From sequence record OQ689735.1: a DNA stretch of 64,000 nt; one strand, 5' to 3'. The translations under genes were made by a program, and so were the position numbers. The notes beneath the pieces were generated by a model. That model had not been told where the DNA came from and ran no database searches. It was given only the letters and a program-made list of their open reading frames with translations. Shown one piece after another: positions 4,303-55,290 of the stretch. The DNA is from Escherichia phage 4E10. Numbering within the stretch: the stretch's first letter is position 1; the number at the start of each line of letters is the position of its first letter.

Positions 4303-4329
4303 ATTATACTCCGGCAATCATAAAGCTAA
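4303..4329 (-). promoter_or_regulatory. candidate MotA-dependent middle promoter for gene 39
   Basis: Minus strand TATAAT with a MotA-box-like TTTAGCTTTA about 12 bp upstream (one mismatch to TGCTT). Confidence 0.35.
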
Positions 4330-4345
4330 AGGCCCGAAGGCCTTT
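4328..4345 (-). terminator. hairpin terminator (AAAGGCC-CGAA-GGCCTTT)
   Basis: Perfect 7-bp stem with tetraloop directly after the stop of the 4345..4614 ORF. Confidence 0.5.
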
Positions 4346-4614
4346 TATTTAAAACGAATAGTTGAATCCTTAAAGAACAACCCAGAACATACTGTTCCTT
4401 CTACTTTCTGCCCGGTAGGTCCAACAGCACGAAATCCAGTATGTTGGAAATCATTTTCAGAGCAACCGAACCAGTTATATCCAGTGATTTCAATATTCGT
4501 AAAACCACTTGATGATAAAATTTTAGTTGCATTATCAGCATCAGTACATCCTACTAAAGATACTGCTAATACTAATGCTGCGATAGAACGATTAACATAT
4601 TTCATAATTTTCAC
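4345..4614 (-). CDS. putative lipoprotein
   Basis: 89-aa ORF; N-terminal signal peptide with lipobox-like LVGC. Confidence 0.55.
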   Translation of the reverse strand: MKIMKYVNRSIAALVLAVSLVGCTDADNATKILSSSGFTNIEITGYNWFGCSENDFQHTGFRAVGPTGQKVEGTVCSGLFFKDSTIRFK

Positions 4615-5814: not shown

Positions 5815-6084
5815 TTAATTGAACAGTGGAGCGATGCGTTTAAGAAGAGTAGCAGCACCTTTAGCGAATTTTACATCATGAAAAACAGTTTCTTCTTCCG
5901 TTACAACACGAGCTTTAATGTTTTCACAATCCCAATTTTTGCGAACAATCTTCAAAAGCTGCAGTAAATCTTTACATTCAGCAATATCGATAACACATCC
6001 ACGAGAATCTTCCATTATCGCACGATAACCGTAAGCCATACCATAATCGTTGAAAGATTGCTCGATGATAATTAAGTTTTCCAT
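5815..6084 (-). CDS. hypothetical protein
   Basis: Track ORF 5815..6096 begins MENKM via a TTG; ATG at 6084 follows GGAGAA and is the likely start. Confidence 0.5.
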   Translation of the reverse strand: MENLIIIEQSFNDYGMAYGYRAIMEDSRGCVIDIAECKDLLQLLKIVRKNWDCENIKARVVTEEETVFHDVKFAKGAATLLKRIAPLFN

Positions 6085-6108
6085 TTTATTCTCCAAGTTA
6101 TTTTCTGT

Positions 6109-6151
6109 ATCAGTAGTTGATATTGATATAGTACCATAATCAACTACTGAT
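6109..6151. repeat. 13-bp perfect inverted repeat (ATCAGTAGTTGAT / ATCAACTACTGAT), 17-nt loop
   Basis: Read directly from sequence; lies in the 5-prime leader of the 5815..6084 gene. Confidence 0.6.
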
Positions 6152-6152
6152 G

Positions 6153-6180
6153 TATATAGTTTTATGAAAAAATTTTAAAC
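6153..6180 (-). promoter_or_regulatory. candidate early promoter (GTTTAA, 16 bp, TATATA)
   Basis: Minus-strand -35/-10-like hexamers right after the motB stop. Confidence 0.35.
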
Positions 6181-12969: not shown

Positions 12970-13036
12970 GATAGCCTCCGTATACTTCAGAAGCTATCAT
13001 ATCATTGTTAGAAAGGAAAGTAAACAACTTTTTGAA

Positions 13037-17406: not shown

Positions 17407-17571
17407 TTACTCTTCTTTTTCTTTAGATTCCTCTTTTTTCTTTTTAGGAATCTGTTCAGGACCTTTATTTACTACAGCACCTGACGTTGTTCCAGTAGAG
17501 ATATTTTCAGGACTACTACCTGAATCTCCAGCGACCATATCTTCTTTGATAAATTCTTTATATGTTTTCAT
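17407..17571 (-). CDS. mini-ORF with internal-protein-like N-terminus
   Basis: 54-aa ORF below cutoff; N-terminus MKTYKEFIKED resembles the IP capsid-targeting sequence MKTYQEFIAE; low-complexity tail. Confidence 0.4.
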   Translation of the reverse strand: MKTYKEFIKEDMVAGDSGSSPENISTGTTSGAVVNKGPEQIPKKKKEESKEKEE

Positions 17572-17614
17572 ATTAACCTCTATTCATAAAAGCATTAAAA
17601 ATTTGGTCATCAAT
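17569..17614. repeat. 46-bp direct repeat, copy 1
   Basis: 43/46 identical to 17927..17972; spans the 61.1 stop and next-gene RBS/ATG. Confidence 0.7.
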
Positions 17615-17929
17615 CGATGGAATAGCAACTTTTTCTGCATCATTTAGCAAATCATTAATTTCATCAGATAGCATAACACATGTACCTTTATTTCCTGTAA
17701 TTGTTACTGCACAATTACGAACGTTTTCTTTATTAAATTTTAGGTTAATATTTTCGTAATGAAAATCCTTTAATGCTGAATATATTTTTAAAATAAAATT
17801 GTCTTTTACTACAATAAACCCAACCTCACTATTAAAACATGGTTCATGGAAACTGTAATAAACCTTTTCATCTATAAAATCGTATGAAATTTTTTCCATT
17901 TTTAAATATGAAAATTCAGAACTATACAT
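17573..17929 (-). CDS. hypothetical protein (T4 61.1 position)
   Basis: 118-aa ORF; C-terminal tail SIDDQIFNAFMNRG shared with next gene. Confidence 0.55.
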   Translation of the reverse strand: MYSSEFSYLKMEKISYDFIDEKVYYSFHEPCFNSEVGFIVVKDNFILKIYSALKDFHYENINLKFNKENVRNCAVTITGNKGTCVMLSDEINDLLNDAEKVAIPSIDDQIFNAFMNRG

Positions 17930-17972
17930 ATTAACCTTTATTCATAAAAGCATTAAAAATTTGATCGTCAAT
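17927..17972. repeat. 46-bp direct repeat, copy 2
   Basis: Near-identical to 17569..17614. Confidence 0.7.
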
Positions 17973-18572
17973 AGAAACTTTTACTTTAGGCTGTTCTTCA
18001 AACGGTAATTCATATCCACATATTACAATTTTGTGATCGATACCAAAATACACAGAAGCAATATGATTAATATTATTTTCAGTGAAATCTAAATCAACAT
18101 CAATATCTTTTTGACTAACGCTCAAAGGATAATTAATACGAATAATTCGATTATCTTTAACAAAGATTCCACCGACATACTCTGTGTTGCGTTTAAAGTT
18201 TACACGTTTCCTAAATGAAAAATATTCAGGTTCTTTATGAGCCCGACTCATAGGACATAATGAATAGCTAGAATAAGAGATGTCAAATCCTACACCTTCA
18301 ATATGAACCAACGCGTCATGATTAAACCAATTATAATCATATGCCAAATCCATTATATTGTAATATGTGAAAGGCACCGGATTAACATCATATATTGTAC
18401 CTTTAAAATCTGCCCAGGCAACGATTTCATTATCTTTAACAATTACAAAAATTGTGCCAATAAGATATCCACGGTTATTTTCATCAGGCGTTATATTATA
18501 ACATTGTGCATCAGGAAATTTACCGTATTTAAACGGTGGATTTTTGTGCATATAATAAATCATATTATTCAC
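17931..18572 (-). CDS. hypothetical protein (T4 61.2 position; possible AdfA-like)
   Basis: 213-aa ORF; positional equivalent of T4 61.2. Confidence 0.5.
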   Translation of the reverse strand: MNNMIYYMHKNPPFKYGKFPDAQCYNITPDENNRGYLIGTIFVIVKDNEIVAWADFKGTIYDVNPVPFTYYNIMDLAYDYNWFNHDALVHIEGVGFDISYSSYSLCPMSRAHKEPEYFSFRKRVNFKRNTEYVGGIFVKDNRIIRINYPLSVSQKDIDVDLDFTENNINHIASVYFGIDHKIVICGYELPFEEQPKVKVSIDDQIFNAFMNKG

Positions 18573-18858: not shown

Positions 18859-18886
18859 GATAATCTCCTCAGTAGTTTATGTTTAT

Positions 18887-18916
18887 ATAGTATCTCAATT
18901 TCCAACAAAAGTAAAC
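18887..18916 (-). promoter_or_regulatory. T4-type early promoter
   Basis: GTTTAC, 18 bp, TACTAT on minus strand, then GGAG and the sp ATG. Confidence 0.5.
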
Positions 18917-18918
18917 AG

Positions 18919-19176
18919 TTATTTTAAAACTTCTGCGTAATCACATGTTACAAACTGTTTCTCTAACTTGTCGATTTTACGAAAATACCTTTTACACTGA
19001 CGAATCTGTCGCTTCGTAGGACGTACAGCAAACTTAATAAATTCCACTCGACCAAATGGAGGACTTTCTTCTGCTGGAATATCTAGCACCAATTCCCACG
19101 TATCTGCAATAAGTGCTTTGAATTGAGTATTTTTCCTGACGTTATACGGAGTAGGTTTAAATAAAACAATATGCAT
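18919..19176 (-). CDS. hypothetical protein (T4 61.4 position)
   Basis: 85-aa ORF. Confidence 0.5.
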   Translation of the reverse strand: MHIVLFKPTPYNVRKNTQFKALIADTWELVLDIPAEESPPFGRVEFIKFAVRPTKRQIRQCKRYFRKIDKLEKQFVTCDYAEVLK

Positions 19177-19360: not shown

Positions 19361-19389
19361 AACAATCTCCTCATTTAACCAACAAGACT

Positions 19390-19419
19390 ACTATACCATA
19401 GTCTTGTCAGCTTGTAAAC
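19390..19419 (-). promoter_or_regulatory. T4-type early promoter
   Basis: GTTTAC, 18 bp, TATAGT; ACAAGAC/GTCTTGT inverted repeat brackets the -10. Confidence 0.5.
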
Positions 19420-23300: not shown

Positions 23301-24031
23301 TCACCTTTATAGTCTTTTTTCACAATATGAGTTTCGCCAGTATTCCACCAATGATCAACCAAGTAAAAATGACGAGAATATACATGAAGACTTCCGACAT
23401 TCCATATAATAGAACCTGCTTTATACTGACGAATTGAATCGCCGGCATTCAAATCAGATACTAATTTATCTAATACGTATTTTTGCCATGCATAATCATT
23501 ACGGAATCCGAAGACCACGTCATTTGAGCGCATGCTTACTACTGCATTGACTTTCTTATCACGAATCAGGTACTGTACTGTATTAGTACACATGAAATCT
23601 GACATACCATCTTTATTGTAGTCAAATTGCATGGATGGACGAGTATAAATCATGATACCACGTCGAGAATCAGGGTTTTGACCAAGTTCAGCTAAACACA
23701 TATCATACTGGGCGTAGTTATCTTCTGACCAAATAGCCCAACCATAATTCGAGTTAATTTCGCCTTTAGAAGATGCTACCTGCTGCCAAATCTTTGGTGT
23801 TTCGCCTGGAATATCTTTAACAAACAAGCTCTTAGATTTATACCATTCAAGTTCACGCTGAATGTATTCATCATTAAGAGCGCCAAAAATAAACGGTTCA
23901 TCTGCTACAAATGATGCGCCAATAATTTCAATAGTTTTAACACCGGTTTTATCAACTACGAAATCTTTTTCTTTTAATGCAAGCCCCAAATGAAGACGGA
24001 TTTCTTCAACTGTCATAGAGTCACTAATCAT
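23291..24031 (-). CDS. 42: dCMP hydroxymethylase
   Basis: 246-aa ORF; matches T4 gp42 in length and position. Confidence 0.85.
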   Translation of the reverse strand: MISDSMTVEEIRLHLGLALKEKDFVVDKTGVKTIEIIGASFVADEPFIFGALNDEYIQRELEWYKSKSLFVKDIPGETPKIWQQVASSKGEINSNYGWAIWSEDNYAQYDMCLAELGQNPDSRRGIMIYTRPSMQFDYNKDGMSDFMCTNTVQYLIRDKKVNAVVSMRSNDVVFGFRNDYAWQKYVLDKLVSDLNAGDSIRQYKAGSIIWNVGSLHVYSRHFYLVDHWWNTGETHIVKKDYKGEWK

Positions 24032-24184
24032 TTAAACCTCAATTGATACATTCATATTTAACTTGTAACAGTAATAAGCTCCAACCTAAAATAATAGTTG
24101 GAATCATAAGAGGAACCGTTACACTATAGTATATACTTATTATAATCATCAAGATTAAAAGCAACACTGCTATAATTTTGCTTT

Positions 24185-24436
24185 TCATTCCTTCTCTCTG
24201 ATGATAATTACTTGATTTGGCTGTGCAGACTTTTTAGTTTCACCCGCAATTGACCAAATAAATGTAATAAACCAACCAATAATTGACCAGTTAAACAGTA
24301 AAGACGTGAAAAAGATTCCTACTGTCGATTTTGACCCACGCATCAAGGCGATAAACCATGGAAGCATGTATATAATAATAGCCAACACACCTGAAACTAA
24401 AACCATAAAAATTGAACCTGCTACTAAAGTTTCCAT
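24185..24436 (-). CDS. imm: Imm superinfection immunity membrane protein
   Basis: 83-aa ORF with two hydrophobic helices; T4 Imm size and position. Confidence 0.75.
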   Translation of the reverse strand: METLVAGSIFMVLVSGVLAIIIYMLPWFIALMRGSKSTVGIFFTSLLFNWSIIGWFITFIWSIAGETKKSAQPNQVIIIREKE

Positions 24437-24443
24437 GTTTTCC

Positions 24444-24824
24444 TCACTTAGTCAAATTTTTTACACATGAATTATAAGAATTCACTACATACTCCATCGG
24501 AGCATTTTTACCAGTACGCAACTGGTAATTATTAGCCCAATTTGCCCAAAGCACGGCGCAGTAATTTTCAATTTTTTCTTCGTGTGTAATTACATCCGAA
24601 TTACGATATGCTTGAGCAGATTCATCTGGACGAATAGCTTCGTCAAAATTTGCCTGCATTTGTTCTACTGTTTTCTTTGGAGCTTCTTTATAACACTTGA
24701 CATTAGGATTATAAAACTTGCTTGAACAGTTTACAATTTTTCCTACATCAGACTGATTTACTACCGGTCCTTGAGCCACACAACCAGTAAGACCTAATGC
24801 AATAACCAAAATAGCGATTTTCAT
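24444..24824 (-). CDS. putative lipoprotein (T4 imm.1 position)
   Basis: 126-aa ORF; signal peptide with lipobox LTGC. Confidence 0.55.
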   Translation of the reverse strand: MKIAILVIALGLTGCVAQGPVVNQSDVGKIVNCSSKFYNPNVKCYKEAPKKTVEQMQANFDEAIRPDESAQAYRNSDVITHEEKIENYCAVLWANWANNYQLRTGKNAPMEYVVNSYNSCVKNLTK

Positions 24825-24834
24825 AATAATTTCC

Positions 24835-25071
24835 TCAAATGCAAGTAGTAATTACTCCAGTAGTGCTTATGCAGATATTACCCATTTGCACACCTAAAGA
24901 TCCATTTGTATTCACATGAAGATTATCATCAATTTTAACTGATATTTTACCATTAGTGTGAATAACGGTGCTAGATTTAATCACAGGTTGAGTATCATTT
25001 TCAACACTAACAAATGGAACTGCTACTAATGCAACTAAACAAACTGCTAAACACCCCATAACAATTTTCAT
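24835..25071 (-). CDS. small secreted/membrane protein
   Basis: Track ORF 24835..25083 trimmed to ATG after GGAGAA; N-terminal signal-like segment. Confidence 0.5.
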   Translation of the reverse strand: MKIVMGCLAVCLVALVAVPFVSVENDTQPVIKSSTVIHTNGKISVKIDDNLHVNTNGSLGVQMGNICISTTGVITTCI

Positions 25072-25108
25072 TTTATTCTCCAAATCTGTATCAGTAGTTG
25101 ATAGTTGT

Positions 25109-25138
25109 ATAGTACCACAGAAGAACAGTCTTGTAAAC
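25109..25138 (-). promoter_or_regulatory. T4-type early promoter in a repeated cassette
   Basis: GTTTAC, 18 bp, TACTAT; about 50 bp identical to the cassette at 51431..51480. Confidence 0.6.
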
Positions 25139-25224
25139 AGTTTTGTGAAAATTTTTTAGGGAATTCTAAAGGTCTAGAATCATCTGTTTTTCATAAGTAT
25201 AGATTTATATTACTTGTATGAAAA

Positions 25225-25242
25225 AGGGACCCGGAGGTCCCT
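25225..25242 (-). terminator. hairpin terminator (AGGGACC-CGGA-GGTCCCT)
   Basis: Perfect 7-bp stem after gene 43 stop. Confidence 0.5.
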
Positions 25243-25254
25243 AGATTTATTCTA

Positions 25255-27951
25255 TCAGCCAAACAGGAAGTCTAACGAAGCTTTTTCTTCATAGTCCATA
25301 CCAGCCGATTCACACATGCCTGCAAGCGGTTTAACAAACGATTTTTGGAACAAAGTTGAGTAGTCAATCCAAGACAGTACGTCAGAACGAATTTCTTTTG
25401 GAAGTTCTGTACCCGACGGCCAAGCAATGCACTTGTCACCAAATGGATTTCCTTCACGCAATGGAAGAACCATTACTTTATTTCCATCCAAAATTGGAGC
25501 TACACCTAAACCGCTAACAGCTCGACGATAAGTTAGCACACCACGAATATGGAACGGGCATTTAAATCCTGGCCAACCTTTATCATCATATTTCGCTATA
25601 TCGTTCGCAGTTTTTACTTCAGCAATAACTTTATAGTCAAGTTGACGATATTCTTTCTCGAAGTTCTTGTAATATTCTTGGACAGACTCTTCACCTTCCT
25701 GAAGAATACGACGAATACTTTCTTCGAGAGCTTCTTGGACCGCTTTAGGCGTTGAACTCTGCTGAGTTTCCATACCCATGATTTTTAGATGCGGTTCAGC
25801 AAATCGCTTATCTTCCATATCATAAACGTTCAGAGCATAACGCTTTTTCGCTTTCCAAAATCCACCAACGCCCTTTGAACCAAGTGGAGGGCAAGAAATA
25901 GCTTCACGGTCCATATGCATCAGATGCTCGCGGTTATTCATATAATCACATAACTCACGATATGCAACATCAATCATAGGTTCCATCTTTTTCTTACCGA
26001 ACTGATTCATGAATTCAACTAAATCGTTCTGCTCTTTGAATCGGTCAAGACCAACTTTTTCAATAACTTTATCTACACAAACATATACCGAATCAGTATC
26101 ACCTGCTGCGATGAAATCTTCGCCATTAGTTCCACATACTTTATTCAGATACTCATTAATTTTACGAGCAATCCACTGAATACCGACTTGACCAAAAATT
26201 GTAATAGCAGTAGCATTTCGCAAATCATAGTAGCGGAAATGAATATTACCAAGAGCACCGTAAAGGCTGTTAATAAGAATTTTACGGTTCAGCTGATTTG
26301 TATTAGCAAGTGTAGCCGCTTTTTCACATTCTTCAATCAAACTATTGAGAACAGATTCAGTATAATTCGATAGTTCATTTAAGAAATCATCACTGAACTT
26401 AACATATCGTTTAACTTCAGGTTTAGTTGAACAAGACCCTGCGCCTTTCATAATAATCTTTTTAATAGCTTCGGCATTCATTTCTTCAGCGAACATTTTC
26501 TTTTTCCAATCTTTACGCTGGAAAAATACTTTAGCGATTTCCTTTGGAATGATACCTTCTTGATGCTTATCATACATCCATCCATTCGGAGAACAAGAAT
26601 ATTCATCACTCGGTTTAGGAGCTGTTCCTGCGATATATTCATGAATTGGATGAACTTTAAACTGACCACGAATAGTCTCAGGACTAATGTTAACCTGACG
26701 AATAATGCTAGGATACAGAGACGTCAAGTCAAAACTCATAATATATCGACGAGCAATTGGTTTAGGTTCAAACACAAATGCACCCGGAAAACTTTGTTTA
26801 ACGTGCGAACCTTGTTGAGGAATAACCTTATGTTCACCTTTCAATGAGTTAAAAATAATAGCATCCCAAGTTTTAATAGGACTCATTACACCGGAAAAAG
26901 GCATTTTAGCGTAATAAGACATACTTAAAACTAGATCGATAAACCCGCGAATTTTATCAATTGCTTGAACTGATTCTACGTCAATGATGTTATAACTGAT
27001 ATATCGTTGATGATTAGTCTCACGAAGTTTATTAATAGGACCATCGTACGGTAATTTACCTTTTTTGGTTTCATGCTGAGCAACTGATTCCAAAGAGAAT
27101 GACGGCAAATTAGTAAATGCGAATTTCTTATACAAATCTAAATAATCAAGAATAGATACGCCATCAATAGAATAAATTTCTTTGCTACCGTACATATTTT
27201 GAATTAGTTTAGATTTTACCCGACCGATTGGAGAGAAGCGTTTCATACTGCGTTCACCGAGAACCATTTTAACACGATTCATGATATACGGAACGTCAAA
27301 TCCCTCAATATTCCAACCAGTAAAAATAGCAGGTCGTTTCTGTTCCCAAAGATTAATATATTCCATGAGCATATCACGCTCATTATCGAATGGCATATAA
27401 ATTACTCGGTCAAGAATTTCTTGAGGAACTTCATCACCACCTTCACAGTCAAGCTTAGCAGCTAACTTTGCATCCCATTTTGATACTGAACCGTACATTG
27501 AATTCAACAAATCAAAGACGTAAAAACGATCGTCAATTGAATCATAATGAGTGATAGCATCAATTTCATATTCTGCTTTCATTGGGTCAGGAAATTTATC
27601 ACCAGTAACCTCAATGTCACAGTTAGCTACACGAACAAATTTTCGGTCATAAACAATTTCTGAACCGTATGTATCACTGATATAAGCGAGTTTAAAATCG
27701 TTCATACCGAGAGCTTCGAGACCGATGTCTTCCATTCGTTTCATCCAATCTCGAGCATCTTTCATTGATGGAAATTTTTGAGGAGCACAGTTTTTACCAT
27801 AGATGTCTTTATATTTTGACTCTTCCTTACAATGCCTAAACATAGTTGGAAGATATTCTACTTCACGAGTACGTTCCTTTCCGTTTTCATCAATATAACG
27901 TTCAACAATGTTATTTCCGACTGTTTCGATAGAGATATAAAATTCTTTCAT
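25255..27951 (-). CDS. 43: DNA polymerase (family B)
   Basis: 898-aa ORF; exo motif CDIEV, pol motifs DLTSLYPS and GDTDS; T4 gp43 length. Confidence 0.95.
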   Translation of the reverse strand: MKEFYISIETVGNNIVERYIDENGKERTREVEYLPTMFRHCKEESKYKDIYGKNCAPQKFPSMKDARDWMKRMEDIGLEALGMNDFKLAYISDTYGSEIVYDRKFVRVANCDIEVTGDKFPDPMKAEYEIDAITHYDSIDDRFYVFDLLNSMYGSVSKWDAKLAAKLDCEGGDEVPQEILDRVIYMPFDNERDMLMEYINLWEQKRPAIFTGWNIEGFDVPYIMNRVKMVLGERSMKRFSPIGRVKSKLIQNMYGSKEIYSIDGVSILDYLDLYKKFAFTNLPSFSLESVAQHETKKGKLPYDGPINKLRETNHQRYISYNIIDVESVQAIDKIRGFIDLVLSMSYYAKMPFSGVMSPIKTWDAIIFNSLKGEHKVIPQQGSHVKQSFPGAFVFEPKPIARRYIMSFDLTSLYPSIIRQVNISPETIRGQFKVHPIHEYIAGTAPKPSDEYSCSPNGWMYDKHQEGIIPKEIAKVFFQRKDWKKKMFAEEMNAEAIKKIIMKGAGSCSTKPEVKRYVKFSDDFLNELSNYTESVLNSLIEECEKAATLANTNQLNRKILINSLYGALGNIHFRYYDLRNATAITIFGQVGIQWIARKINEYLNKVCGTNGEDFIAAGDTDSVYVCVDKVIEKVGLDRFKEQNDLVEFMNQFGKKKMEPMIDVAYRELCDYMNNREHLMHMDREAISCPPLGSKGVGGFWKAKKRYALNVYDMEDKRFAEPHLKIMGMETQQSSTPKAVQEALEESIRRILQEGEESVQEYYKNFEKEYRQLDYKVIAEVKTANDIAKYDDKGWPGFKCPFHIRGVLTYRRAVSGLGVAPILDGNKVMVLPLREGNPFGDKCIAWPSGTELPKEIRSDVLSWIDYSTLFQKSFVKPLAGMCESAGMDYEEKASLDFLFG

Positions 27952-28009
27952 AGATATTCCTTAGTTTATAGCCCGAGTTATTAGGCTCTTGATATATTAT
28001 ACTCCAATT

Positions 28010-28027
28010 AAGGGGCCGAAGCCCCTT
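28010..28027 (-). terminator. hairpin terminator (AAGGGGC-CGAA-GCCCCTT)
   Basis: Stem-loop after the stop of the 28030..28251 ORF. Confidence 0.5.
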
Positions 28028-28029
28028 GC

Positions 28030-28251
28030 TTAAATTAGTACTATTTGCCGGGTGAAAATTGTCAATCCATCTGCATTAATTGACTTAACGAATGCTGTAA
28101 AATGTTTTTGTTCTGGATGAACTAGTTTTTGAAATTCTACTTGAAATTTTAGTTGGAGGTTTTCTGGTAAATCAAAAAGTGTTTCTGTTGCAGAAAGATT
28201 ATATTTTTCTTTAAGAGACGCCATGTATTCTTGTGGAGTTATAGCAGTCAT
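28030..28251 (-). CDS. hypothetical protein
   Basis: Track ORF 28030..28293 trimmed to internal ATG (MTAITPQEY...) adjacent to regA stop. Confidence 0.45.
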   Translation of the reverse strand: MTAITPQEYMASLKEKYNLSATETLFDLPENLQLKFQVEFQKLVHPEQKHFTAFVKSINADGLTIFTRQIVLI

Positions 28252-30147: not shown

Positions 30148-30181
30148 AATTTCCTCATTCAAGTTTTAGTGTAAATTATAA

Positions 30182-30195
30182 AGGGCCGAAGCCCT
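30182..30195 (-). terminator. hairpin terminator (AGGGC-CGAA-GCCCT)
   Basis: Stem-loop after gene 45 stop. Confidence 0.45.
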
Positions 30196-30198
30196 CTA

Positions 30199-30885
30199 TT
30201 AAAAATCGTGGGTAGAATCAGCTTCAAGAGCTACTACATAATTCGCGTGTTCACCTTCAAATTTAGCAGCACCTTGTTTACCTTTTGCCCAGAGTAAAAG
30301 TTTATAATTTCCTGGTTGCATTTTCATATTTGCCATATTGATAATGAAATTAAATGTATTTTCACCATCATAATCACCAAGAGTCAAAGAATATTTAACA
30401 CGGGTAAGAGCAGAATCTTCTACTTTATTAAAACCGTTAATTACGATTTTACCTTCTTTTACTGTGATAGCAATTGTATCAATCTGCAGACCACGAGATA
30501 CACGCAACAGTTGTTGAAGGTCTTCAGCTTTAATTTCAGTAACAACAGATGCTACCGGGAATGGAATTGGTTTATTAGGAGCAACTACTGTGCTCGGATC
30601 AGCTGCTGGCCAAAAAATTGTTGAACGAGCATCAGCAATTTTAATATTTCCATCTTCTGACTGGGAAATTTCTGCATCGTCATTAACTAGGGACAGAATA
30701 CCGAGAAAACCGTTCAAATCGTAAATTGCTACATCAAAATCAATAGTGTCAGAAATATTTGCTTCCGCATAAGTTGTACCATTAACTGCACGAGTCATAA
30801 TAAATTGACCAGATTTAAGCATAATGCCAGAGTTAATAGTAGCGAAATTTTTAAGCAGAGCAGTAGTATCTTTAGACAGTTTCAT
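30199..30885 (-). CDS. 45: sliding clamp
   Basis: 228-aa ORF; matches T4 gp45. Confidence 0.9.
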   Translation of the reverse strand: MKLSKDTTALLKNFATINSGIMLKSGQFIMTRAVNGTTYAEANISDTIDFDVAIYDLNGFLGILSLVNDDAEISQSEDGNIKIADARSTIFWPAADPSTVVAPNKPIPFPVASVVTEIKAEDLQQLLRVSRGLQIDTIAITVKEGKIVINGFNKVEDSALTRVKYSLTLGDYDGENTFNFIINMANMKMQPGNYKLLLWAKGKQGAAKFEGEHANYVVALEADSTHDF

Positions 30886-34866: not shown

Positions 34867-34890
34867 TATATCAAACTCCGTATAAAGCTA

Positions 34891-34906
34891 AAGGGCCGAA
34901 GCCCTT
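34891..34906 (-). terminator. hairpin terminator (AAGGGC-CGAA-GCCCTT)
   Basis: Stem-loop after alpha-gt stop. Confidence 0.5.
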
Positions 34907-36108
34907 TATTTTGTAATAATGTCAAACTGTTCTTTAAAGCAGAAGCTTGAATCTTGATGCTGATACAAAAATTCATATGCTTTTTCTCGCTCACGGTCAT
35001 AAAGAGCTCGGTCAGATGACAGTTCTTTAATACGCTCAAATGTTGATTCCATATCATTTTCATCAAACCAAATGATACCGCTATCATGCGAGGTCAAAGG
35101 AGTATTATCAACACGGAATTTTAAATTTTCGCCAGTAGATTTCCAGAAAACAGGAATTGTTCCACATGCACCAAGCTCGAGATGAGTATATTCTAAAGAA
35201 CGTTGTAGATATTTTTTATCCAACTTACTCAACTGATAACCAAAACCGGATTTACTCATACGTTCAAGCATTTCGCTATTTACATAACGGTCAAGAATTT
35301 GCGTTGGCAAATTAGGAGCAATTTTAATTTGGTCTACTTGATGAAGACGATAATACTCGTATGGAATTCCTTTTTCTTTAATAGGAATGAACGCTGGAGA
35401 ACGTTCCAGACCTTCCATAATAGTACTTAGTCCTGCAGGTTTAAGATGTTTTTCATGAAAATCAAACATCTGATAAAAACCTTTCCATGTAGTCGTGCGA
35501 CCAATCCAACGGTTGATATTCATGTTAATTTCAGAAACATCTTTCCAGTAGGTTGACCGAACCTTCGCAATATCCATAGGAGGCTGAAAGTTATATACGG
35601 TCGGTGCTTCTTCAATATCATCAAACAGAGAAACAGTTTCTGGATACCATTCTTTCATCAGAACTTTATTAAAATCGCCATTATCAGAATGGCTAAAAAT
35701 AACATCAGCTCGACGAACAGTTTCTTCTAATCCCAAATTTCGACGCAAAGAAAGAGAAGAATGGTCATGTTGATAAACTACAACACGAACAGAAGGTTTA
35801 ATGTTATCAATAATTTTTTTATAGTTATTAATAGTGTCTTCTTCAACCGAAGTAGCAGGAACTGAATTGATAATTAGAATATCACAATCATTTACCAGCT
35901 TAAGTGTTTTATCATATTCTTTTGCCAATAAAACCGGAATTGAAAATGATTTATAATCATGCGCGCAATTACGAGTAAATGATTTATCTTTAGCATAAAC
36001 CAAAGTTACTTCATGACCATTCTTAATAAACCAATCACGTTGCTCAAGAGAAAATTTAGTTACACCACAACCTTCAAGACCTCGAGCCATAAAAATACAT
36101 ACTTTCAT
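34906..36108 (-). CDS. agt: DNA alpha-glucosyltransferase
   Basis: 400-aa ORF; strong match to T4 alpha-gt (MKVCIFMARGLEGCGVTKF...). Confidence 0.9.
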   Translation of the reverse strand: MKVCIFMARGLEGCGVTKFSLEQRDWFIKNGHEVTLVYAKDKSFTRNCAHDYKSFSIPVLLAKEYDKTLKLVNDCDILIINSVPATSVEEDTINNYKKIIDNIKPSVRVVVYQHDHSSLSLRRNLGLEETVRRADVIFSHSDNGDFNKVLMKEWYPETVSLFDDIEEAPTVYNFQPPMDIAKVRSTYWKDVSEINMNINRWIGRTTTWKGFYQMFDFHEKHLKPAGLSTIMEGLERSPAFIPIKEKGIPYEYYRLHQVDQIKIAPNLPTQILDRYVNSEMLERMSKSGFGYQLSKLDKKYLQRSLEYTHLELGACGTIPVFWKSTGENLKFRVDNTPLTSHDSGIIWFDENDMESTFERIKELSSDRALYDREREKAYEFLYQHQDSSFCFKEQFDIITK

Positions 36109-38491: not shown

Positions 38492-38529
38492 ACATTATCC
38501 TCAATTACGTTAAAATTTTATTATCCAAA

Positions 38530-38545
38530 AAGGGCCGAAGCCCTT
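38530..38545 (-). terminator. hairpin terminator (AAGGGC-CGAA-GCCCTT)
   Basis: Stem-loop at the stop of the 38544..38744 ORF. Confidence 0.45.
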
Positions 38546-38744
38546 AGCTAAACTTTTTGGCACCCTTCCAGCCTTCATACATCATTGCGGCTGATATTAA
38601 TATTGCTCCTGAGCAACTTGAATATTTGTGATTCCAAAACCAGTTTAGAAAAACTTCGTCATCAATACCTTGGGCTATCATATTTTCAAAGAACTGACGA
38701 CGAGCTTCGGCAATTCGCTGCGATAATTTAGATTCAGGATTCAT
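38544..38744 (-). CDS. small hypothetical protein
   Basis: 66-aa ORF. Confidence 0.45.
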   Translation of the reverse strand: MNPESKLSQRIAEARRQFFENMIAQGIDDEVFLNWFWNHKYSSCSGAILISAAMMYEGWKGAKKFS

Positions 38745-39352: not shown

Positions 39353-39492
39353 ATCAAATCCTCAAAGGCAATTCATATGTTAATAATACCACGGTTTGAA
39401 CTTGTTGTAAACAACTTTGTGAAAATATTTTAGGGAATGACAAGAAGGGAACGATAGCTTAGAATGGTAATATACAGAATGCGAGAAAGAAA

Positions 39493-47055: not shown

Positions 47056-47085
47056 ATTATACCACATCCTTGTGGCAAAGTAAAC
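47056..47085 (-). promoter_or_regulatory. T4-type early promoter
   Basis: GTTTAC, 18 bp, TATAAT with CCACA/TGTGG spacer repeat. Confidence 0.55.
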
Positions 47086-48104
47086 TAGTTCAGTGCATTT
47101 AGTGCATTGTTCAGTTTAGAACGTTGCTTTGTCAGATTTTGAACCCTTGACTGAGCTTGTTCTAACACCTTTTCAGCTTCTAGCACTTCATTGGTCGCTT
47201 TAACGAGTTCATCATCTACTGCCTTAAGAGACTTCTCAATCGCGTCAGCGTGCCATTTTTCTACAGGTTTAAAATTTGAATTTTCAGTAGGAAGAAAACT
47301 CACTTTATTAAGTTTACATGCATCTATATTGCTTGAGTTATACATCCAAAATTTAGGATCGTTTGATAAGTAATTAGATAAATTTAAGTTATCTTGCACT
47401 TCTTGCTTTTTCTCTTGTGGGACTTCGTCCTTTCTCAAAAAATCGTATTTAAATGAAACGACCATATCAAGTTCATACGTTGTTGTGTCTAATTTAAATC
47501 GCTCAAAACGAGGTAAAATCTTAGAATGAACACTAGCAACAACATCCATATACTTAAATGCTTCTGTCAACTGCGATTTAAGGCATTCGCAAATTGAAAG
47601 AGAATTTTTTGTATTAGGTTTAAAGCTAATTCGTGCAGTTCTATTATTTTCTTTTAATGGTCTTACTTCCATCTGAAGAGTATAACCATCAAATTTCAGG
47701 TTCTTTAAGTTAATGTCAGAACCTTTTAATCGACTAGCTGTCGACAAAATTTGCTTTAATTGTTTACGGAATAGAGCAATAAATCTCCATTCAAGACGGT
47801 AATGATTTGGATTAAAAAATCCTGTTGATAAATCAACCTTACTCTGACCAACGCCTTGAACAAATAGAGGATTTTTATAATCAATAGTTTTACAGAAATC
47901 GGTGAGCTGTTCACGAGCAGTCATTTGCGTAATATATCCAGCTTTATCAAAATGTCGCAACCATTCACTGCTATTCATATACTTAAAGTGAATGGAACTA
48001 TTAACTCTATCAGGGTCTAAATTATTTTGGCACAAAAATGTCATAACATTACGGGTATAGCTGGCATTACGAACCATATCTTCAATTTGAGAACGAGTTT
48101 TCAT
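47085..48104 (-). CDS. hypothetical protein, coiled-coil family member C
   Basis: 339-aa ORF; motif WRFIALFRKQLKQILSTASRL; C-terminal coiled coil. Confidence 0.55.
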   Translation of the reverse strand: MKTRSQIEDMVRNASYTRNVMTFLCQNNLDPDRVNSSIHFKYMNSSEWLRHFDKAGYITQMTAREQLTDFCKTIDYKNPLFVQGVGQSKVDLSTGFFNPNHYRLEWRFIALFRKQLKQILSTASRLKGSDINLKNLKFDGYTLQMEVRPLKENNRTARISFKPNTKNSLSICECLKSQLTEAFKYMDVVASVHSKILPRFERFKLDTTTYELDMVVSFKYDFLRKDEVPQEKKQEVQDNLNLSNYLSNDPKFWMYNSSNIDACKLNKVSFLPTENSNFKPVEKWHADAIEKSLKAVDDELVKATNEVLEAEKVLEQAQSRVQNLTKQRSKLNNALNALN

Positions 48105-49470: not shown

Positions 49471-49998
49471 TTATGCGAGTACCGTCTTTAACCGTTCTTC
49501 AAACTTCCGAAGAGTATTTTGGCGTTCAGCTCTTTGCTTTTTGTAAGTTTCAATACGCTCTGAAATGAGAGTGTATCGTTCATTTACTGATTCTTTCATA
49601 AAATCAGGAATTTCACGAGAAGCTTTAATCTCATCAAATTTATCAATAACAGCTTGCTCTTCAGCAATTAAGTTATCATACATTAAAATATCTTTCTTGA
49701 TGAACTCAATATCTTCTTGAGTTACACGAGATAATTTAGATGCTTTATCCTTTTTGTACTGTTCGTTAGTATCACGAGACCAGTGTAATGTACGATTTTT
49801 ATTCGTATTTTTGTAAATTTCTACAATACCAATTTCATCAATAATAACGATCCAATTCCAACGGGATTTGTAAATTTGTCCTCCATCAACAGTGATTTCA
49901 CCTCCGATTGAGATGTCATTAAAGAACTTGCTTTGTGCTTCAGATTTAAATTTACCATCGTTGTAATTTACCAGGTTGAAAATATCTTTAGCATTCAT
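49471..49998 (-). CDS. hypothetical protein with C-terminal coiled coil
   Basis: Track ORF 49471..50058 trimmed to ATG after GGAGG (MNAKDIF...); the upstream part is promoter leader. Confidence 0.5.
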   Translation of the reverse strand: MNAKDIFNLVNYNDGKFKSEAQSKFFNDISIGGEITVDGGQIYKSRWNWIVIIDEIGIVEIYKNTNKNRTLHWSRDTNEQYKKDKASKLSRVTQEDIEFIKKDILMYDNLIAEEQAVIDKFDEIKASREIPDFMKESVNERYTLISERIETYKKQRAERQNTLRKFEERLKTVLA

Positions 49999-50026
49999 TT
50001 TGTGTTCCTCCGTAGTTGATAGTTGT

Positions 50027-50056
50027 ATAGTACCACAGAGGAACAGTCTTGTAAAC
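50027..50056 (-). promoter_or_regulatory. T4-type early promoter (cassette copy)
   Basis: GTTTAC, 18 bp, TACTAT; shares GTAGTTGATAGTTGTATAGTACCACAG core with 25091..25120. Confidence 0.55.
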
Positions 50057-50058
50057 AA

Positions 50059-50373
50059 CTAAAAGAAACTTCTTTCACAATTTTTTCCACTAAACCATGC
50101 GCTGACCGCTTTCTTAGTCTCAGGAGCAGTGTTATCCATAAACCATTCAAAGGCAGCCTTTTTATGATTCTGGAGGGCTTCTCGGGCTTTAATCTGCTCA
50201 CGGTCTATTAACACTAATATATGAGCCTTTCTTGTCACCAAGGGCTTCTTATGATTCTTGGAGTATTCCCAGTCATTTGTCCAACGCATTGTCGTTGCGA
50301 ACTGATGAACCGCGTCTTTAATTTTAGTTTCATAAATTTCACGAGCCTTTGAGTATAACATCACTACCTCCAT
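50059..50373 (-). CDS. hypothetical protein
   Basis: 104-aa ORF. Confidence 0.5.
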   Translation of the reverse strand: MEVVMLYSKAREIYETKIKDAVHQFATTMRWTNDWEYSKNHKKPLVTRKAHILVLIDREQIKAREALQNHKKAAFEWFMDNTAPETKKAVSAWFSGKNCERSFF

Positions 50374-50462
50374 TCACCAGTTTAATTCTAGTCATCTTTT
50401 TGATGGCAGTCCATATAATCTATTTCTGAACTGCCTTTTTGTCATAGAAGTCCTCTTATGAA

Positions 50463-51431
50463 TTATTTCAGAAGAGTAACCTCAGCGATTTCTTCCCAAC
50501 CGTTTTTGTCGGTCATAATAAAGTCAGCAAGATAAAGAGCAGTACGCAGTGAAACATTGCGTAAACGATTAACATTGACTTTCATCCATGATAATGCTTT
50601 ATAAGTTTCTTCATCAGAAAGACCGCGCTTTTGCATCATGTCAGTTGAAAGAATAACATCTTCAACCCTGACCATAATTTCTTCATTAGTGTGAACACCC
50701 AAATCTAAATAAACTGAGCGGGACACTAATGCTTGTAAATGTGGAGCAAGTTTAGTACCACGGTCTAATTCGCGGTCAATGTCAACGTTTGTGATAAAAA
50801 CAATCGTTCCTTTAAATTCAAACTCACGCTCAATGCCTTTTTCTTCTAAGTAAGAAGATGCAGTGCTCCAGCAGACTTTACGGGTCTCTCCAGTGTCCAG
50901 AGCGGCTTTTAGAAGATTAAGAATATCCATATCAGAGAAAACATCCACATCATCAATCAAAAGGACAGAATTCTCTTCACGATTATTCCAAAGCTGCTCA
51001 TAAAGACCGATACCGGAGATTTTACCGTTAATGCTTTTATATTCAATGTATCCAATATCATTTGCTTTATTTAAAGCTTTATCTAAAGAATACGTTTTAC
51101 CAATACCTGCTGCACCAGAGATAATTAATGAACGAATGTTTCCGTTAATAATACCATTCGTCATCATTCCCATAACATTAAATCTTTTATTAATGCGGGT
51201 TTTCATATCTTCATACGATTCTTTAACTTCTTCAACTTTTACACCATCATATGAAATGTCTGATTTGTAAACCCAAACACCGCGACGTTTACCGTCAATT
51301 TCAACAAAAACTTTACCATCTCCTTGTGCATCTACCGGAGCATTATCTGGGAACCATTCGCCTAAAAGCTCAAAAGTTCCAGAGATTTCTTTACCGAAGT
51401 AGATACCCTTATTGATAGTTACAGTTTTCAT
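50463..51431 (-). CDS. P-loop NTPase
   Basis: Track ORF trimmed to MKTVTINK start; Walker A GAAGIGKT, Walker B LLIDDVD. Confidence 0.6.
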   Translation of the reverse strand: MKTVTINKGIYFGKEISGTFELLGEWFPDNAPVDAQGDGKVFVEIDGKRRGVWVYKSDISYDGVKVEEVKESYEDMKTRINKRFNVMGMMTNGIINGNIRSLIISGAAGIGKTYSLDKALNKANDIGYIEYKSINGKISGIGLYEQLWNNREENSVLLIDDVDVFSDMDILNLLKAALDTGETRKVCWSTASSYLEEKGIEREFEFKGTIVFITNVDIDRELDRGTKLAPHLQALVSRSVYLDLGVHTNEEIMVRVEDVILSTDMMQKRGLSDEETYKALSWMKVNVNRLRNVSLRTALYLADFIMTDKNGWEEIAEVTLLK

Positions 51432-51468
51432 TTTATTCTCCAAATCTGTATCAGTAGTTGATAGTTGT

Positions 51469-51498
51469 ATAGTACCATAAAGCTTTATGATTGTAAAC
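51469..51498 (-). promoter_or_regulatory. T4-type early promoter (cassette copy)
   Basis: GTTTAC, 18 bp, TACTAT; about 50 bp identical to 25071..25120. Confidence 0.6.
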
Positions 51499-51528
51499 CG
51501 TTTTGTGAAAAATTTTTGAAATAAAAAA

Positions 51529-51546
51529 GGGAGCCCGAAGGCTCCC
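51529..51546 (-). terminator. hairpin terminator (GGGAGCC-CGAA-GGCTCCC)
   Basis: Perfect 7-bp stem after the 51549..52562 stop. Confidence 0.5.
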
Positions 51547-51548
51547 TA

Positions 51549-52562
51549 TCATTTATAATAACTTCGGTGGTTTTCAAGATAGACCTTCTCAAGGAAGTCA
51601 TCCCAGAAACTCATGTCTACTGTTTTAGGCATACCGTTCTTAGAAGCTTCAGTAGATGCTGCTTCTACTTGATCGACCACATCTTCTAAAAACTCTTGAA
51701 CCGTTTTAAATGGATGCTTACCCAACTTCACGTCGAGAATAAATGGAGCGTCTTGAAGTGGATAAATCAAGTCGCCAGTTTTGTAAATTTCCAATAGTTG
51801 AAGTCCACCACGACAGGCATGACTCAGAGCTTTCCAGTCAATGCCTTCATTGGCTTCGGCCTTACGAGCACGTTCACCATATTCAGCATCTAATTTGTTC
51901 AGTGACTGCTTAAGCTCAATAAGAGAAAGCGTTGTCTGATATTTACGACCCAATACAGTGTAGAACGTTTGTGGACCTGTTTTCTCATGATTATGGAATA
52001 CCCATTCACAAAATTCGTTCTCTGGAAGACGATGCTTAATATCTTCAACTTTAGTTCGACGCTGCTTAATGGAACCGTCTTCTTGGTAATCAACCCATTG
52101 CTCAGGGATTTGATTAACTACTTTCAATACATCACGTAATGCGGCCAAACGAGAACCCTTAACACCGTATTTAGAAGCTTGCTTGCGAACATATCCTAAA
52201 TAGGATTTCATGTTAGTCGTATAAAAACGAGAACGGTTGTCTTGAATAAACTTCCACACATCAGGCAAATCGGATTTAACCACTAGTTCAGGTGGAGTGT
52301 GAAGCATATCCAATGCTACAGTTTCACCATCTGCTGCTAATTTAAAGAAATACTTAAGACTGTATAGTTCATGGTCAATATCATCTTTAGTGTTTTTAGA
52401 TGATGTGTTGTTAGTGTTTTTACTCATATGCTCTTTAACATTTCCAATAAGAATATCGCGAGCAGGAGGAACAAAGATTTCTTTAAAATCTACATCAGAT
52501 TCTGGAGTAGAAGTTCCATAAAGATGACTACCAAAATAGCTTTTCATTACTGTTTTCATCAT
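51549..52562 (-). CDS. putative nucleotidyltransferase (pol-beta superfamily)
   Basis: 337-aa ORF; N-terminal GS...D-x-D motif as FGSHLYGTSTPESDVDF. Confidence 0.5.
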   Translation of the reverse strand: MMKTVMKSYFGSHLYGTSTPESDVDFKEIFVPPARDILIGNVKEHMSKNTNNTSSKNTKDDIDHELYSLKYFFKLAADGETVALDMLHTPPELVVKSDLPDVWKFIQDNRSRFYTTNMKSYLGYVRKQASKYGVKGSRLAALRDVLKVVNQIPEQWVDYQEDGSIKQRRTKVEDIKHRLPENEFCEWVFHNHEKTGPQTFYTVLGRKYQTTLSLIELKQSLNKLDAEYGERARKAEANEGIDWKALSHACRGGLQLLEIYKTGDLIYPLQDAPFILDVKLGKHPFKTVQEFLEDVVDQVEAASTEASKNGMPKTVDMSFWDDFLEKVYLENHRSYYK

Positions 52563-54280: not shown

Positions 54281-54412
54281 TACATACTCCTCTGAATCAT
54301 ATCAATAATGTTGTTCACCAGATTATAAGTAAACATTGGGTAATTATATTGAATCATCACATACACAACAAACAAAACTTTCATTCTCTTCTCCTTGGCA
54401 GTTGACAAGATT

Positions 54413-54442
54413 ACTATACCATAACCTTGCCAACTTGTAAAC
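54413..54442 (-). promoter_or_regulatory. T4-type early promoter
   Basis: GTTTAC, 18 bp, TATAGT; imperfect inverted repeat GTTGACAAG/CTTGCCAAC brackets the -10. Confidence 0.5.
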
Positions 54443-54804: not shown

Positions 54805-55008
54805 TTAAACTCTCGTATTATGATCGATAATTTCATCAAGAAACATATCTAACGCTTCTAAAGCATTATCAACTTTAGTTTCAAGTTCATCAATGCCTTT
54901 ATTTGCAATGCCTGATGAAAACCAAGCAAAGTCACTAAGTTCCTCATCTGCTTTACGAATTAAAGCTACCAATTCCTTAATTTTATCCGCTTGTTCGATA
55001 CTAATCAT
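54805..55008 (-). CDS. small hypothetical protein
   Basis: Track ORF 54805..55044 trimmed to MISIEQADK. Confidence 0.4.
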   Translation of the reverse strand: MISIEQADKIKELVALIRKADEELSDFAWFSSGIANKGIDELETKVDNALEALDMFLDEIIDHNTRV

Positions 55009-55196
55009 TATTCCACCACATATGAAAGAGAGAATATTGCACATGCCATGTGAGTTGCAACTTCATCACACATATTATAGCGTTTCTTAAGAAGTTCTAC
55101 AAGTTCTTCACTAGTAACTTCATCCATGTCGACGAAAAAATCACCATTAATGATGACGTAGATATTTCCTTCTTGATTGAGTGCTTCAATTTTCAT
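55008..55196 (-). CDS. small hypothetical protein
   Basis: Track ORF 55008..55343 trimmed to ATG after GAGGAG (MKIEALNQ...); the rest is promoter leader. Confidence 0.45.
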
Positions 55197-55224
55197 GATG
55201 TTCTCCTCTTTATCCGATAGTTGT

Positions 55225-55254
55225 ATAGTACCACAGCTCAAACGGAAAGTAAAC
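55225..55254 (-). promoter_or_regulatory. T4-type early promoter (cassette copy)
   Basis: GTTTAC, 18 bp, TACTAT; upstream flank shared with the soc-proximal promoter. Confidence 0.55.
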
Positions 55255-55269
55255 CGGTAAAATGAAAAA

Positions 55270-55285
55270 GTCTCCCGAAGGAGAC
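55270..55285 (-). terminator. hairpin terminator (GTCTCC-CGAA-GGAGAC)
   Basis: Stem-loop after the 55291..55677 stop, abutting the next promoter. Confidence 0.5.
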
Positions 55286-55290
55286 TAATG

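Follow-up and report, generated by a model that had tools for sequence, protein, structure and literature searches.

Repeated promoter-leader cassettes of a T4-like phage belong to a described class of early-promoter elements and coincide with sites of accessory-gene indels

The closest described systems to the repeats reported here are the promoter-early stem-loop elements (PeSLs) of T4-like phages. For T4 and PST, Comeau, Arbiol & Krisch (2014, PMC4122927) define the element as a composite of a stem-loop, an AT-rich tract, TTTACW-N17-TAYWAT, a Shine-Dalgarno (SD) sequence and a start codon, accept degraded 'half' elements that lack the stem-loop as PeSLs, and place PeSLs in hyperplastic early regions, beside sites where close relatives differ by insertion, deletion or replacement. 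In RB49 and phi1, PeSLs are cassettes of a strong early promoter and a terminator that flank ORFans (Arbiol 2010, PMC2839356); the crossovers mapped by experiment in these phages fall in one of two intervals, -10 to ATG or SD to -10, and mini-circles were shown by inverse PCR (PMC2839356). T4 early promoters have an 'Ueber' structure (UP, -35, TGn, and -10) and are used by unmodified host RNA polymerase (Hinton 2010, PMC2988021). The cassettes studied here have the same GTTTAC-type -35 and 17-nt spacer; however, the generic T4 early consensus stops near the start site, whereas the subfamily found here also shares 19–37 nt of transcribed leader, and its -10 reads TACTAT where generic T4 early promoters have TATAAT. 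T4 early promoters were reportedly also treated by Liebig and Rueger in 1989.

The DNA analysed is a 64,000-nucleotide stretch of Escherichia phage 4E10 (OQ689735.1), referred to below as the window. It comes from a T4-like phage of the genus Tequatrovirus, is about 99% identical to AR1, Sf23, and JY01, and corresponds approximately to T4 map positions 0–67 kb, from rIIA to past regB. Its GC content is about 35% with a uniformly negative GC skew, and the genes of the region all lie on the minus strand. Megablast comparison of positions 24000–27000 and 50400–52600 with a phage collection returns several hundred Tequatrovirus genomes at 97–100% identity, including AR1, Sf23, JY01, and ECO95. The focal copy of the repeat sits just downstream of gene 43 (DNA polymerase), its exact partner in the gap that separates nrdC.11 from nrdC.10.

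A first-pass annotation of the window had proposed that these cassettes resemble PeSLs, and the likeness goes beyond resemblance: the promoter, the AT-rich tract, the SD with its start codon and the indel setting all match, and a stem-loop is found in 3 of 6 copies. Genus, composite layout and indel setting are those of the T4/PST elements, from which nothing essential differs. The cassettes are thus an already published class of element, in the genus where it was described, and not a new kind of element. What is added here to the T4/PST description is a leader-sharing subfamily, a leader whose 3' end is an optimal RegB site, a table of alleles across sites, and a negative excision test. Compared with RB49 and phi1, the putative exchange tract and the indel edge fall in the same interval as the mapped crossovers. 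The RB49 elements, unlike the copies here, have near-perfect TTGACA/TATAAT hexamers and GGGG...CCCC stems, and whereas mini-circles were demonstrated in RB49 and phi1, only sequences are compared here and the predicted excision product is fixed in no sequenced genome.

We consider it very likely that the copies form a subfamily of T4-type early-promoter cassettes (PeSLs) that are both self-contained expression modules and recombination joints. They add to the documented examples of repeated promoter-leader cassettes marking the spots at which T4-like phages exchange small accessory genes. A large share of such genes are now known to counter host defences.

Going by published T4 work on promoter activity, transcription start, RegB cleavage, and recombination mechanism, the cassettes would operate as follows. 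A strong sigma-70 promoter (UP-like tract, TTTACA, 17 nt, and TGn-TACTAT) would be read by unmodified host RNA polymerase immediately after infection, giving a short, unstructured, A/U-rich leader in which the SD, GGAGAATAAAA, doubles as a site for RegB and ribosomal protein S1. Because this SD equals the optimal RegB/S1 site, the gene behind the cassette would be translated at once and its mRNA inactivated within minutes by RegB/S1; the orthologous T4 sites precede known early genes. Where present, the upstream terminator hairpin would insulate the module from the preceding gene. The cassettes would also act as joints, because they are near-identical direct copies in a genome that recombines on short homologies; accessory ORFs could then be inserted, deleted, or swapped without losing expression, and patches of sequence could pass from one cassette copy to another.

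All copies lie on the minus strand and share one layout (Table 1): an A/T-rich tract, the -35, a 17-nt spacer, TGn, TACTAT, a leader of 28–43 nt, GGAG, and ATG. The claim that each copy carries an early promoter, a conserved leader, a ribosome-binding site and the ATG is therefore borne out. TTTACA/T-17 nt-TACTAT occurs at 25137, 51497, 50055, 55253, and 18915, the copy at 6156 (6.1 kb) has TATACA as its -35, and GGAG stands 5–8 nt before the ATG in all 6. The A/T-rich tracts are of the AAAAAATTTTCACAAAAC type at 25137, 51497, and 6156, and the remaining copies have A/T-rich tracts as well. An independent consensus scan recovers three of the promoters (25137, 51497, and 50055), each with TG before the -10; the 25137 copy reads TGg before TACTAT, and the gene downstream of it begins ATGAAAA. 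A terminator scan finds hairpins upstream of 3 of the 6 copies and none at 50055, 6156, or 18915. Those before the nrdC.10 and mobD.5 cassettes lie directly upstream of the promoter, and the one after gene 43 is about 88 nt from the -35.

Table 1. Coordinates of the cassettes and adjoining features in the window
Feature	Position	Strand	Basis or remark
Terminator hairpin after gene 43, AGGGACCTCCGGGTCCCT + T-run	25225..25242	-	Terminator scan
A/T-rich UP-like tract CCCTAAAAAATTTTCACAAAACTG, common to the 51497 and 39411 promoters	25138..25165	-	Sequence comparison
Promoter core: -35 TTTACA (25137-25132), 17-nt spacer, TGn, -10 TACTAT (25114-25109)	25109..25137	-	
37-nt leader ACAACTATCAACTACTGATACAGATTTGGAGAATAAA, predicted unstructured	25072..25108	-	Fold z = 0.05, without Rfam family
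GGAGAATAAAA, SD and exact match to the optimal RegB/S1 site	25071..25081	-	Consensus scan
78-aa ORF behind the cassette; AR1_049 homolog, phrog_4189, absent from T4	24835..25071	-	ATG 25071-25069
Terminator hairpin after nrdC.11, AGGGAGCCTTCGGGCTCCCT + T-run, directly upstream of the nrdC.10 cassette	51528..51547	-	Terminator scan
nrdC.10 cassette: UP-like tract, -35 TTTACA (51497-51492), site-specific spacer, -10 TACTAT (51474-51469)	51432..51520	-	37-nt leader identical to the 25108-25072 leader; RegB-site match 51441-51431
nrdC.10 homolog, 322 aa, phrog_1250	50463..51431	-	Start ATG 51431
nrdC.8 cassette: -35 TTTACA (50055-50050), -10 TACTAT (50032-50027), 28-nt leader ACAACTATCAACTACGGAGGAACACAAA	49999..50055	-	Without upstream hairpin; spacer complementary to SD
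nrdC.8 homolog, 175 aa, phrog_2274	49471..49998	-	Start ATG 49998
mobD.5 cassette: hairpin 55286-55269, -35 TTTACT (55253-55248), -10 TACTAT (55230-55225), 28-nt leader	55197..55286	-	Terminator scan (hairpin); first 10 nt of leader (ACAACTATCg) common to the family
mobD.5 homolog, 62 aa, phrog_3024	55008..55196	-	Start ATG 55196
6.1-kb cassette: degenerate -35 TATACA (6156-6151), -10 TACTAT (6133-6128), 43-nt leader ending GGAGAATAAA	6085..6156	-	12-bp perfect inverted repeat TCAGTAGTTGAT/ATCAACTACTGA straddling the -10
89-aa ORF behind the 6.1-kb cassette, phrog_3720	5815..6084	-	
Distant member before the spackle (sp) homolog: TTTACT-17-TACTAT, leader ATAAACATAAACTACTGAGGAGATTATC	18859..18915	-	Leader identity to the family 0.70-0.75

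The family centres on an exact 49-mer, CATTTTATTCTCCAAATCTGTATCAGTAGTTGATAGTTGTATAGTACCA, which occurs at two places (25069–25117 and 51429–51477, plus strand) and has no match in 100 dinucleotide-preserving shuffles. Repeat discovery extends this pair to 57 nt with one mismatch (25061–25117 vs 51421–51477). An identical stretch of about 50 bp with three partial copies had been reported in the first-pass annotation; the two exact and three partial copies are real, and the positions it gave for the exact pair are 2 nt off. The partial copies lie at 50009–50075 (85% identity over 67 nt, with an exact 25-mer), 55207–55273 (exact 19-mer GTGGTACTATACAACTATC), and 6080–6136 (91% over 33 nt, plus an exact 15-mer at the SD/ATG), and repeat discovery also groups 6110–6176 with the focal pair. 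A weaker family member is found at 18869–18935, and at 39365–39431 the promoter alone is common to the family.

To place these values, a set of 17 minus-strand early promoters from the window was compared segment by segment. In the 20 nt that follow the -10, identity is 74% for family pairs and 36 ± 12% (maximum 65%) for other pairs; the corresponding values are 48% vs 38% for the upstream 30 nt and 44% vs 41% for the spacer. The excess similarity of the family sits in the transcribed leader, because this segment alone stands out, and the copies are more similar to each other than generic early promoters are. The 25137 copy is itself a mosaic: its upstream tract is closest to the 39411 promoter (80% over the upstream 30 nt, vs 63% to the 51497 promoter), its spacer to 50055 (94%), and its leader is that of 51497 (100%).

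The family is also present in relatives. T4 has it at homologous sites (imm.1, nrdC.10, nrdC.8, the cef region, and mobD.5), with additional copies before e.8 and trna.4, which fall outside the window. A scan of IMG/VR with the leader core yielded about 5 T4-like genomes and 20 loci, a set too small for a phylogenetic test, and was supplemented by targeted sequences from the phage collection. In the set made up of five IMG/VR T4-like genomes, T4, and the window, no fewer than 8 different genes have the 21-nt core GGTACTATACAACTATCAACT in front of them, namely e.8, imm.1, the 78-aa ORF, nrdC.10, nrdC.8, an 87-aa ORF, a 37-aa ORF, and the gene of a 211-aa protein beginning MSKVTYIIKASNDV; in one phage record, motA is annotated under the cassette match. 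A sensitive search finds 6–9 places per Tequatrovirus genome and a single one (e.8) in the Mosigvirus RB69, so the multi-copy state is an expansion within Tequatrovirus.

Comparing flanking genes across related genomes, as the first-pass annotation had suggested, reveals indels at three cassette sites (gene 43, nrdC.10, and 6.1 kb). At the gene-43 site, the cassette is fused directly to imm.1 in T4 and one IMG/VR genome, and a 247-nt block lies between cassette and imm.1 in the window, AR1, and four other genomes. This block encodes the 78-aa ORF (85 aa in one variant) and is bounded by the direct repeat ATGAAAAT, with SD-like similarity before it; its boundary therefore coincides exactly with the cassette's 3' edge. 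Inserts are also found at the nrdC.10 site, two additional ORFs (49 and 87 aa) in OMNI12 and a different one (66 aa) in PinkRuby; in both phages they are flanked by the usual cassette on one side and, on the other, by a second promoter cassette, which then drives nrdC.10. The same site gives a split match in at least 6 further records. At 6.1 kb, T4 keeps the cassette, followed by ATGGAAAA and then by the last ~55 nt of the 89-aa ORF, and the deletion scar begins 8 nt after the start codon. Selection could be responsible for indels that end at cassette edges, since only those that keep promoter and SD survive; the cassettes may make recombination more frequent, or they may just be the places at which a rearrangement can end and still be viable.

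The leaders differ among genomes, and their alleles are shared between sites. Only 12 of 516 records match the 116-nt nrdC.10-site sequence of the window at 99% identity or more, T4 and the majority of the 516 being 93–95% identical to it; that the two main copies match exactly is a recent, derived, and lineage-specific state, not typical of the genus. At the gene-43 site, T4 and IMG/VR genome B have the leader ACTACTGATACGG, with ACT---GATACGG at nrdC.10. AR1 combines ACTACTGATACAG at gene 43 with the same nrdC.10 leader as T4 (ACT---GATACGG), and EC121 combines ACTACTGATACAG with ACT---GATATAG. SfPhi01 has ACTACTGATACGG at gene 43 and ACTACTGATACAG at nrdC.10, and both JY01 and the window carry ACTACTGATACAG at the two sites. 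The nrdC.10 leader of RB3 is likewise ACTACTGATACAG, and IMG/VR genome D has a short gene-43 leader, ACTGATACGG. The spacer at the gene-43 site is of the e.8 type (tccctgttcttc) in IMG/VR genomes C and D and agactgttcttc in the others. The 'long-A' and 'short-G' leader alleles therefore each occur at both the gene-43 and the nrdC.10 sites, in different genomes.

Short-patch ectopic exchange between cassettes, in tracts of at most about 57 nt running from the -10 to the start codon, is the simplest and the probable explanation for the shared alleles, because alleles with multiple differences recur at non-allelic sites while the site-specific flanks stay in place. Recurrent ACT slippage combined with a transition could also lead to such sharing, and the nrdC.10 site of EC121, which has A at the diagnostic position without the insertion, counts toward that reading. 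The table of leader alleles offers a cheap measure of ectopic exchange that needs nothing but sequence, and roughly 500 sequenced Tequatroviruses are at hand for it.

Exchange on a larger scale can be looked for between neighbouring copies. A distance of 1,442 bp separates the 51497 and 50055 cassettes, which have a 25-nt exact core in common, and excision between them would leave a phage without nrdC.10 and nrdC.9 and with a hybrid cassette. The query for this product was a chimera in which the end of nrdC.11 and the 51497 promoter are joined to the 50055 leader and nrdC.8. The predicted junction is covered by 0 of 659 matching phage records, which points either to rarity of the event or to selection against its product.

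The 3' end of the leader has a published counterpart. According to Durand (2006, PMC1702504), the optimal RegB/S1 site is the 11-nt GGAGAAUAAAA, with the consensus GGAGRAYARAA, and in T4 the nrdC.8 site is moderately cleaved and 24 other sites are efficiently cleaved by RegB. These sites are described, in that paper and by Uzan & Miller (2010, PMC3014915), as lying in unstructured translation initiation regions of T4 early genes. The leader end GGAGAATAAAA equals the published optimal site letter for letter. Exact matches to GGAGRAYARAA occur at 25081-25071, 51441-51431, and 6094-6084 and nowhere else in the 64 kb, where 0.47 are expected, although the three are copies of one repeat and not independent. 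They are the same three cassettes in which MENKM reading frames begin (see below), and the family members at 50055, 55253, and 18915 deviate from the consensus. By analogy with the T4 sites, the three cassettes that match exactly would be cleaved by RegB. As for the rest of the leader, none of 6 folded variants is more stable than its shuffles (z -0.09 to 1.04), and a scan of the whole window at Rfam gathering thresholds gave 0 matches; we reject the hypothesis of a structured RNA, as the leaders fold no better than shuffles and belong to no Rfam family.

We regard as possible, though on balance doubtful, a more specific reading made up of one joint claim, namely that the cassettes are a regulatory module under concerted evolution and that, in the nrdC.8/regB/modB subset, the spacer supplies an anti-SD arm. 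The immediate-early promoter and the optimal RegB-site leader would then be copied to new sites by short-patch ectopic conversion. If true, at least 8 unrelated accessory genes, including motA, would have been recruited into a 'burst then shut-off' class, and the genes with an anti-SD arm would yield protein only when transcribed from their own promoter—i.e. an early-promoter version of the mechanism of e, soc, 49, and I-TevI.

The copies may also have become alike without any exchange, each being independently selected as a maximal early promoter with an optimal SD/RegB site, and the indels at their edges would then reflect survivorship, only those that preserve the expression signal being viable. 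T4 early promoters do share an extended consensus beyond the -35 and -10 (PMC2988021), the leader's 3' end coincides with a functional consensus, and the search for a fixed excision product between neighbouring copies was negative. However, some 25 leader positions, ACAACTATCAACTACTGATACAGATTT, are covered by the identity; no function is known for these positions, and the 11 other early promoters in the window do not share them. Independent selection also fits poorly with the mosaic similarity of the 25137 copy, in which upstream tract, spacer, and leader each have a different partner, with identical multi-difference alleles at non-allelic sites, and with the OMNI12 and PinkRuby inserts, which have a cassette on both sides. 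We therefore find convergence improbable, and prefer descent of the copies as PeSL cassettes that exchange patches.

Less probable still is that the conserved leader is a cis-regulatory RNA in its own right (e.g. a binding site for a phage or host factor, or a small-RNA target) that would place a set of early genes (motA, imm.1, nrdC.10, nrdC.8, e.8, and others) under joint regulation additional to that by promoter and RegB. The occurrence of the core ACAACTATCAACTAC before at least 8 unrelated genes, at 6–9 places per genome, and also upstream of e.8 in the more distant RB69, is what such a set would look like. Yet the leader has no predicted structure (z about 0) and no Rfam family, its middle is free to vary from copy to copy and from allele to allele, by 3-nt indels or by having other sequence in its place, and its identity is explained by recent common ancestry and exchange.

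The PeSL cassettes also bear on gene starts, as each copy has a leader that can be read through in frame with the ATG, the one feature that would fit MENKM and CGTIQLS being genuine N-terminal protein extensions. This we hold to be very improbable, in line with the first-pass annotation, which took these starts to be translated leader and the downstream ATG to be the true one. The ORF list contains TTG-initiated MENKM ORFs at 25083, 51443, and 6096; their TTG lies inside the SD itself (aTTGGAG), and they have no SD of their own. The CGTIQLS read-through comes from ORFs starting at 50058 (nrdC.8) and 55343 (mobD.5), which translate promoter and leader; it begins upstream of the -10 and therefore outside the early transcript. 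The downstream ATG is the annotated start in AR1 and T4, and PHROG family profiles align from profile position 1–3 when the proteins begin there. On the grounds of the AR1/T4 annotation and the profile starts we reject the extensions, and a simple rule follows for annotating T4-like genomes: ORFs that start with MENKM or have CGTIQLS close to the N-terminus are to be trimmed to the ATG after GGAGAATAAA.

Finally, an autonomous, self-inserting mobile element (MITE-like or homing) is extremely unlikely and rejected: the copies are multiple and dispersed, with variable ORFs adjoining and homing endonuclease genes common in the region (segE in AR1), but their positions in T4, AR1, and the window are orthologous, they have no terminal inverted repeats, target-site duplications, or associated transposase or endonuclease, and every one of them runs in the direction of transcription and is joined to a start codon.

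A separate observation concerns the spacers of the 17 early promoters. Inverted repeats between spacer and leader that straddle the -10 are enriched, with at least 8 matched bp in 5 of 17 promoters vs 0.46 expected, and 0 of 300 shuffles reach the observed mean. In read-through RNA, the predicted hairpins have folding energies of -19 to -24 kcal/mol (z -2.65 to -4.7). Among all 17 promoters tested, the anti-SD spacer effect is absent at the two focal copies; a general anti-SD role of the family spacers is rejected, non-random SD occlusion being found in only 3 of 17 promoters and at neither focal copy. At these three—13024 (modB homolog), 50055 (nrdC.8), and 59448 (regB)—the SD is wholly buried in the predicted read-through hairpin and free in the transcript from the gene's own promoter: the probability that it is unpaired falls from 0.71–0.93 to 0.00 in read-through, a value as low as which is reached by 0 of 100 upstream shuffles. 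SD occlusion in read-through transcripts is known for e, soc, 49, and I-TevI (PMC3014915), and the SD burial predicted here appears similar but involves early promoters.

We find that the Shine-Dalgarno sequence (SD) of each of the regB, nrdC.8 and modB homologs is complementary to the spacer of the early promoter of the same gene. When the regB and nrdC.8 regions were folded, the SD was buried in a predicted hairpin of read-through RNA, i.e. RNA that enters from upstream of the promoter (about -23 kcal/mol, z about -4.6). Specifically, for all 3 genes the predicted probability that the SD is unpaired is 0.00 in the read-through RNA vs 0.71-0.93 in the promoter-initiated transcript, and none of the upstream shuffles gave a value as low as that of the read-through RNA (0/100). 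These predictions suggest that the regB, nrdC.8 and modB homologs may be translated solely from each gene's own promoter. Similar own-promoter-only translation is found in T4 for e, soc, 49, and I-TevI, from which the present 3 genes differ by using early promoters.

Long inverted repeats that span the -10 hexamer and leave the SD uncovered are present at 3 sites, with predicted RNA folds of -19 to -24 kcal/mol. For example, the repeat in the cassette (promoter, leader, SD, and ATG) near 6.1 kb reads TCAGTAGTTGAT...ATCAACTACTGA and matches at 12/12 bp. Among the 17 early promoters of the window, 5 have at least 8 matched bp (expected 0.46).

Subfamilies of promoter cassettes are a general feature of the phage genome analysed, because other early promoters also form near-identical pairs, i.e. 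those of the rIIA.1 and nrdC.4 homologs (97%, 32 nt) and those of the 61.4-region and mobD.2a-region genes (87%, 38 nt).

Coordinates of promoter, inverted-repeat and terminator features (window positions)
Feature	Position	Strand
regB homolog early promoter, spacer complementary to own SD	59378-59455	minus
nrdC.8 homolog early promoter, spacer complementary to own SD	49985-50062	minus
modB homolog early promoter, spacer complementary to own SD	about 12990-13030	minus
Long inverted repeat across -10 hexamer, SD uncovered	6104-6151	minus
Long inverted repeat across -10 hexamer, SD uncovered	19375-19418	minus
Long inverted repeat across -10 hexamer, SD uncovered	54400-54441	minus
Promoter pair preceding rIIA.1 and nrdC.4 homologs	2429-2460 / 47056-47087	
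Promoter pair preceding 61.4-region and mobD.2a-region genes	19382-19419 / 54405-54442	
GGGCCGAAGCCC-type terminator hairpins	28009-28039, 30179-30209, 38528-38558, 4320-4350, 34882-34912	

Terminator hairpins of the GGGCCGAAGCCC type, with similar flanks, also recur across the window (repeat families D6 and D20); they are a repeated terminator family, separate from the promoter cassettes. Unrelated to the cassettes is an indel relative to phage AR1, which carries the homing-endonuclease gene segE between nrdC.10 and nrdC.9 (L027, AR1 50677-51174); the corresponding interval of the window (50373-50463) is without segE.

A 49-nt direct repeat (92% identity) lies at 17569-17617 and 17927-17975, with a spacing of 358 nt. 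Each copy ends at a minus-strand start codon, which suggests 2 small paralogous genes in tandem or a duplicated gene start.

According to a review, the T4 RegA SELEX consensus aaAAUUGUUAUGUAA is matched exactly in no natural T4 message. Its first 12 nt, AAAAUUGUUAUG, constitute codons 2-5 of the 78-aa ORF behind the cassette downstream of gene 43 (25057-25068, minus strand), the only exact match in the window; with one mismatch permitted there are 6 matches (expected 2.07).
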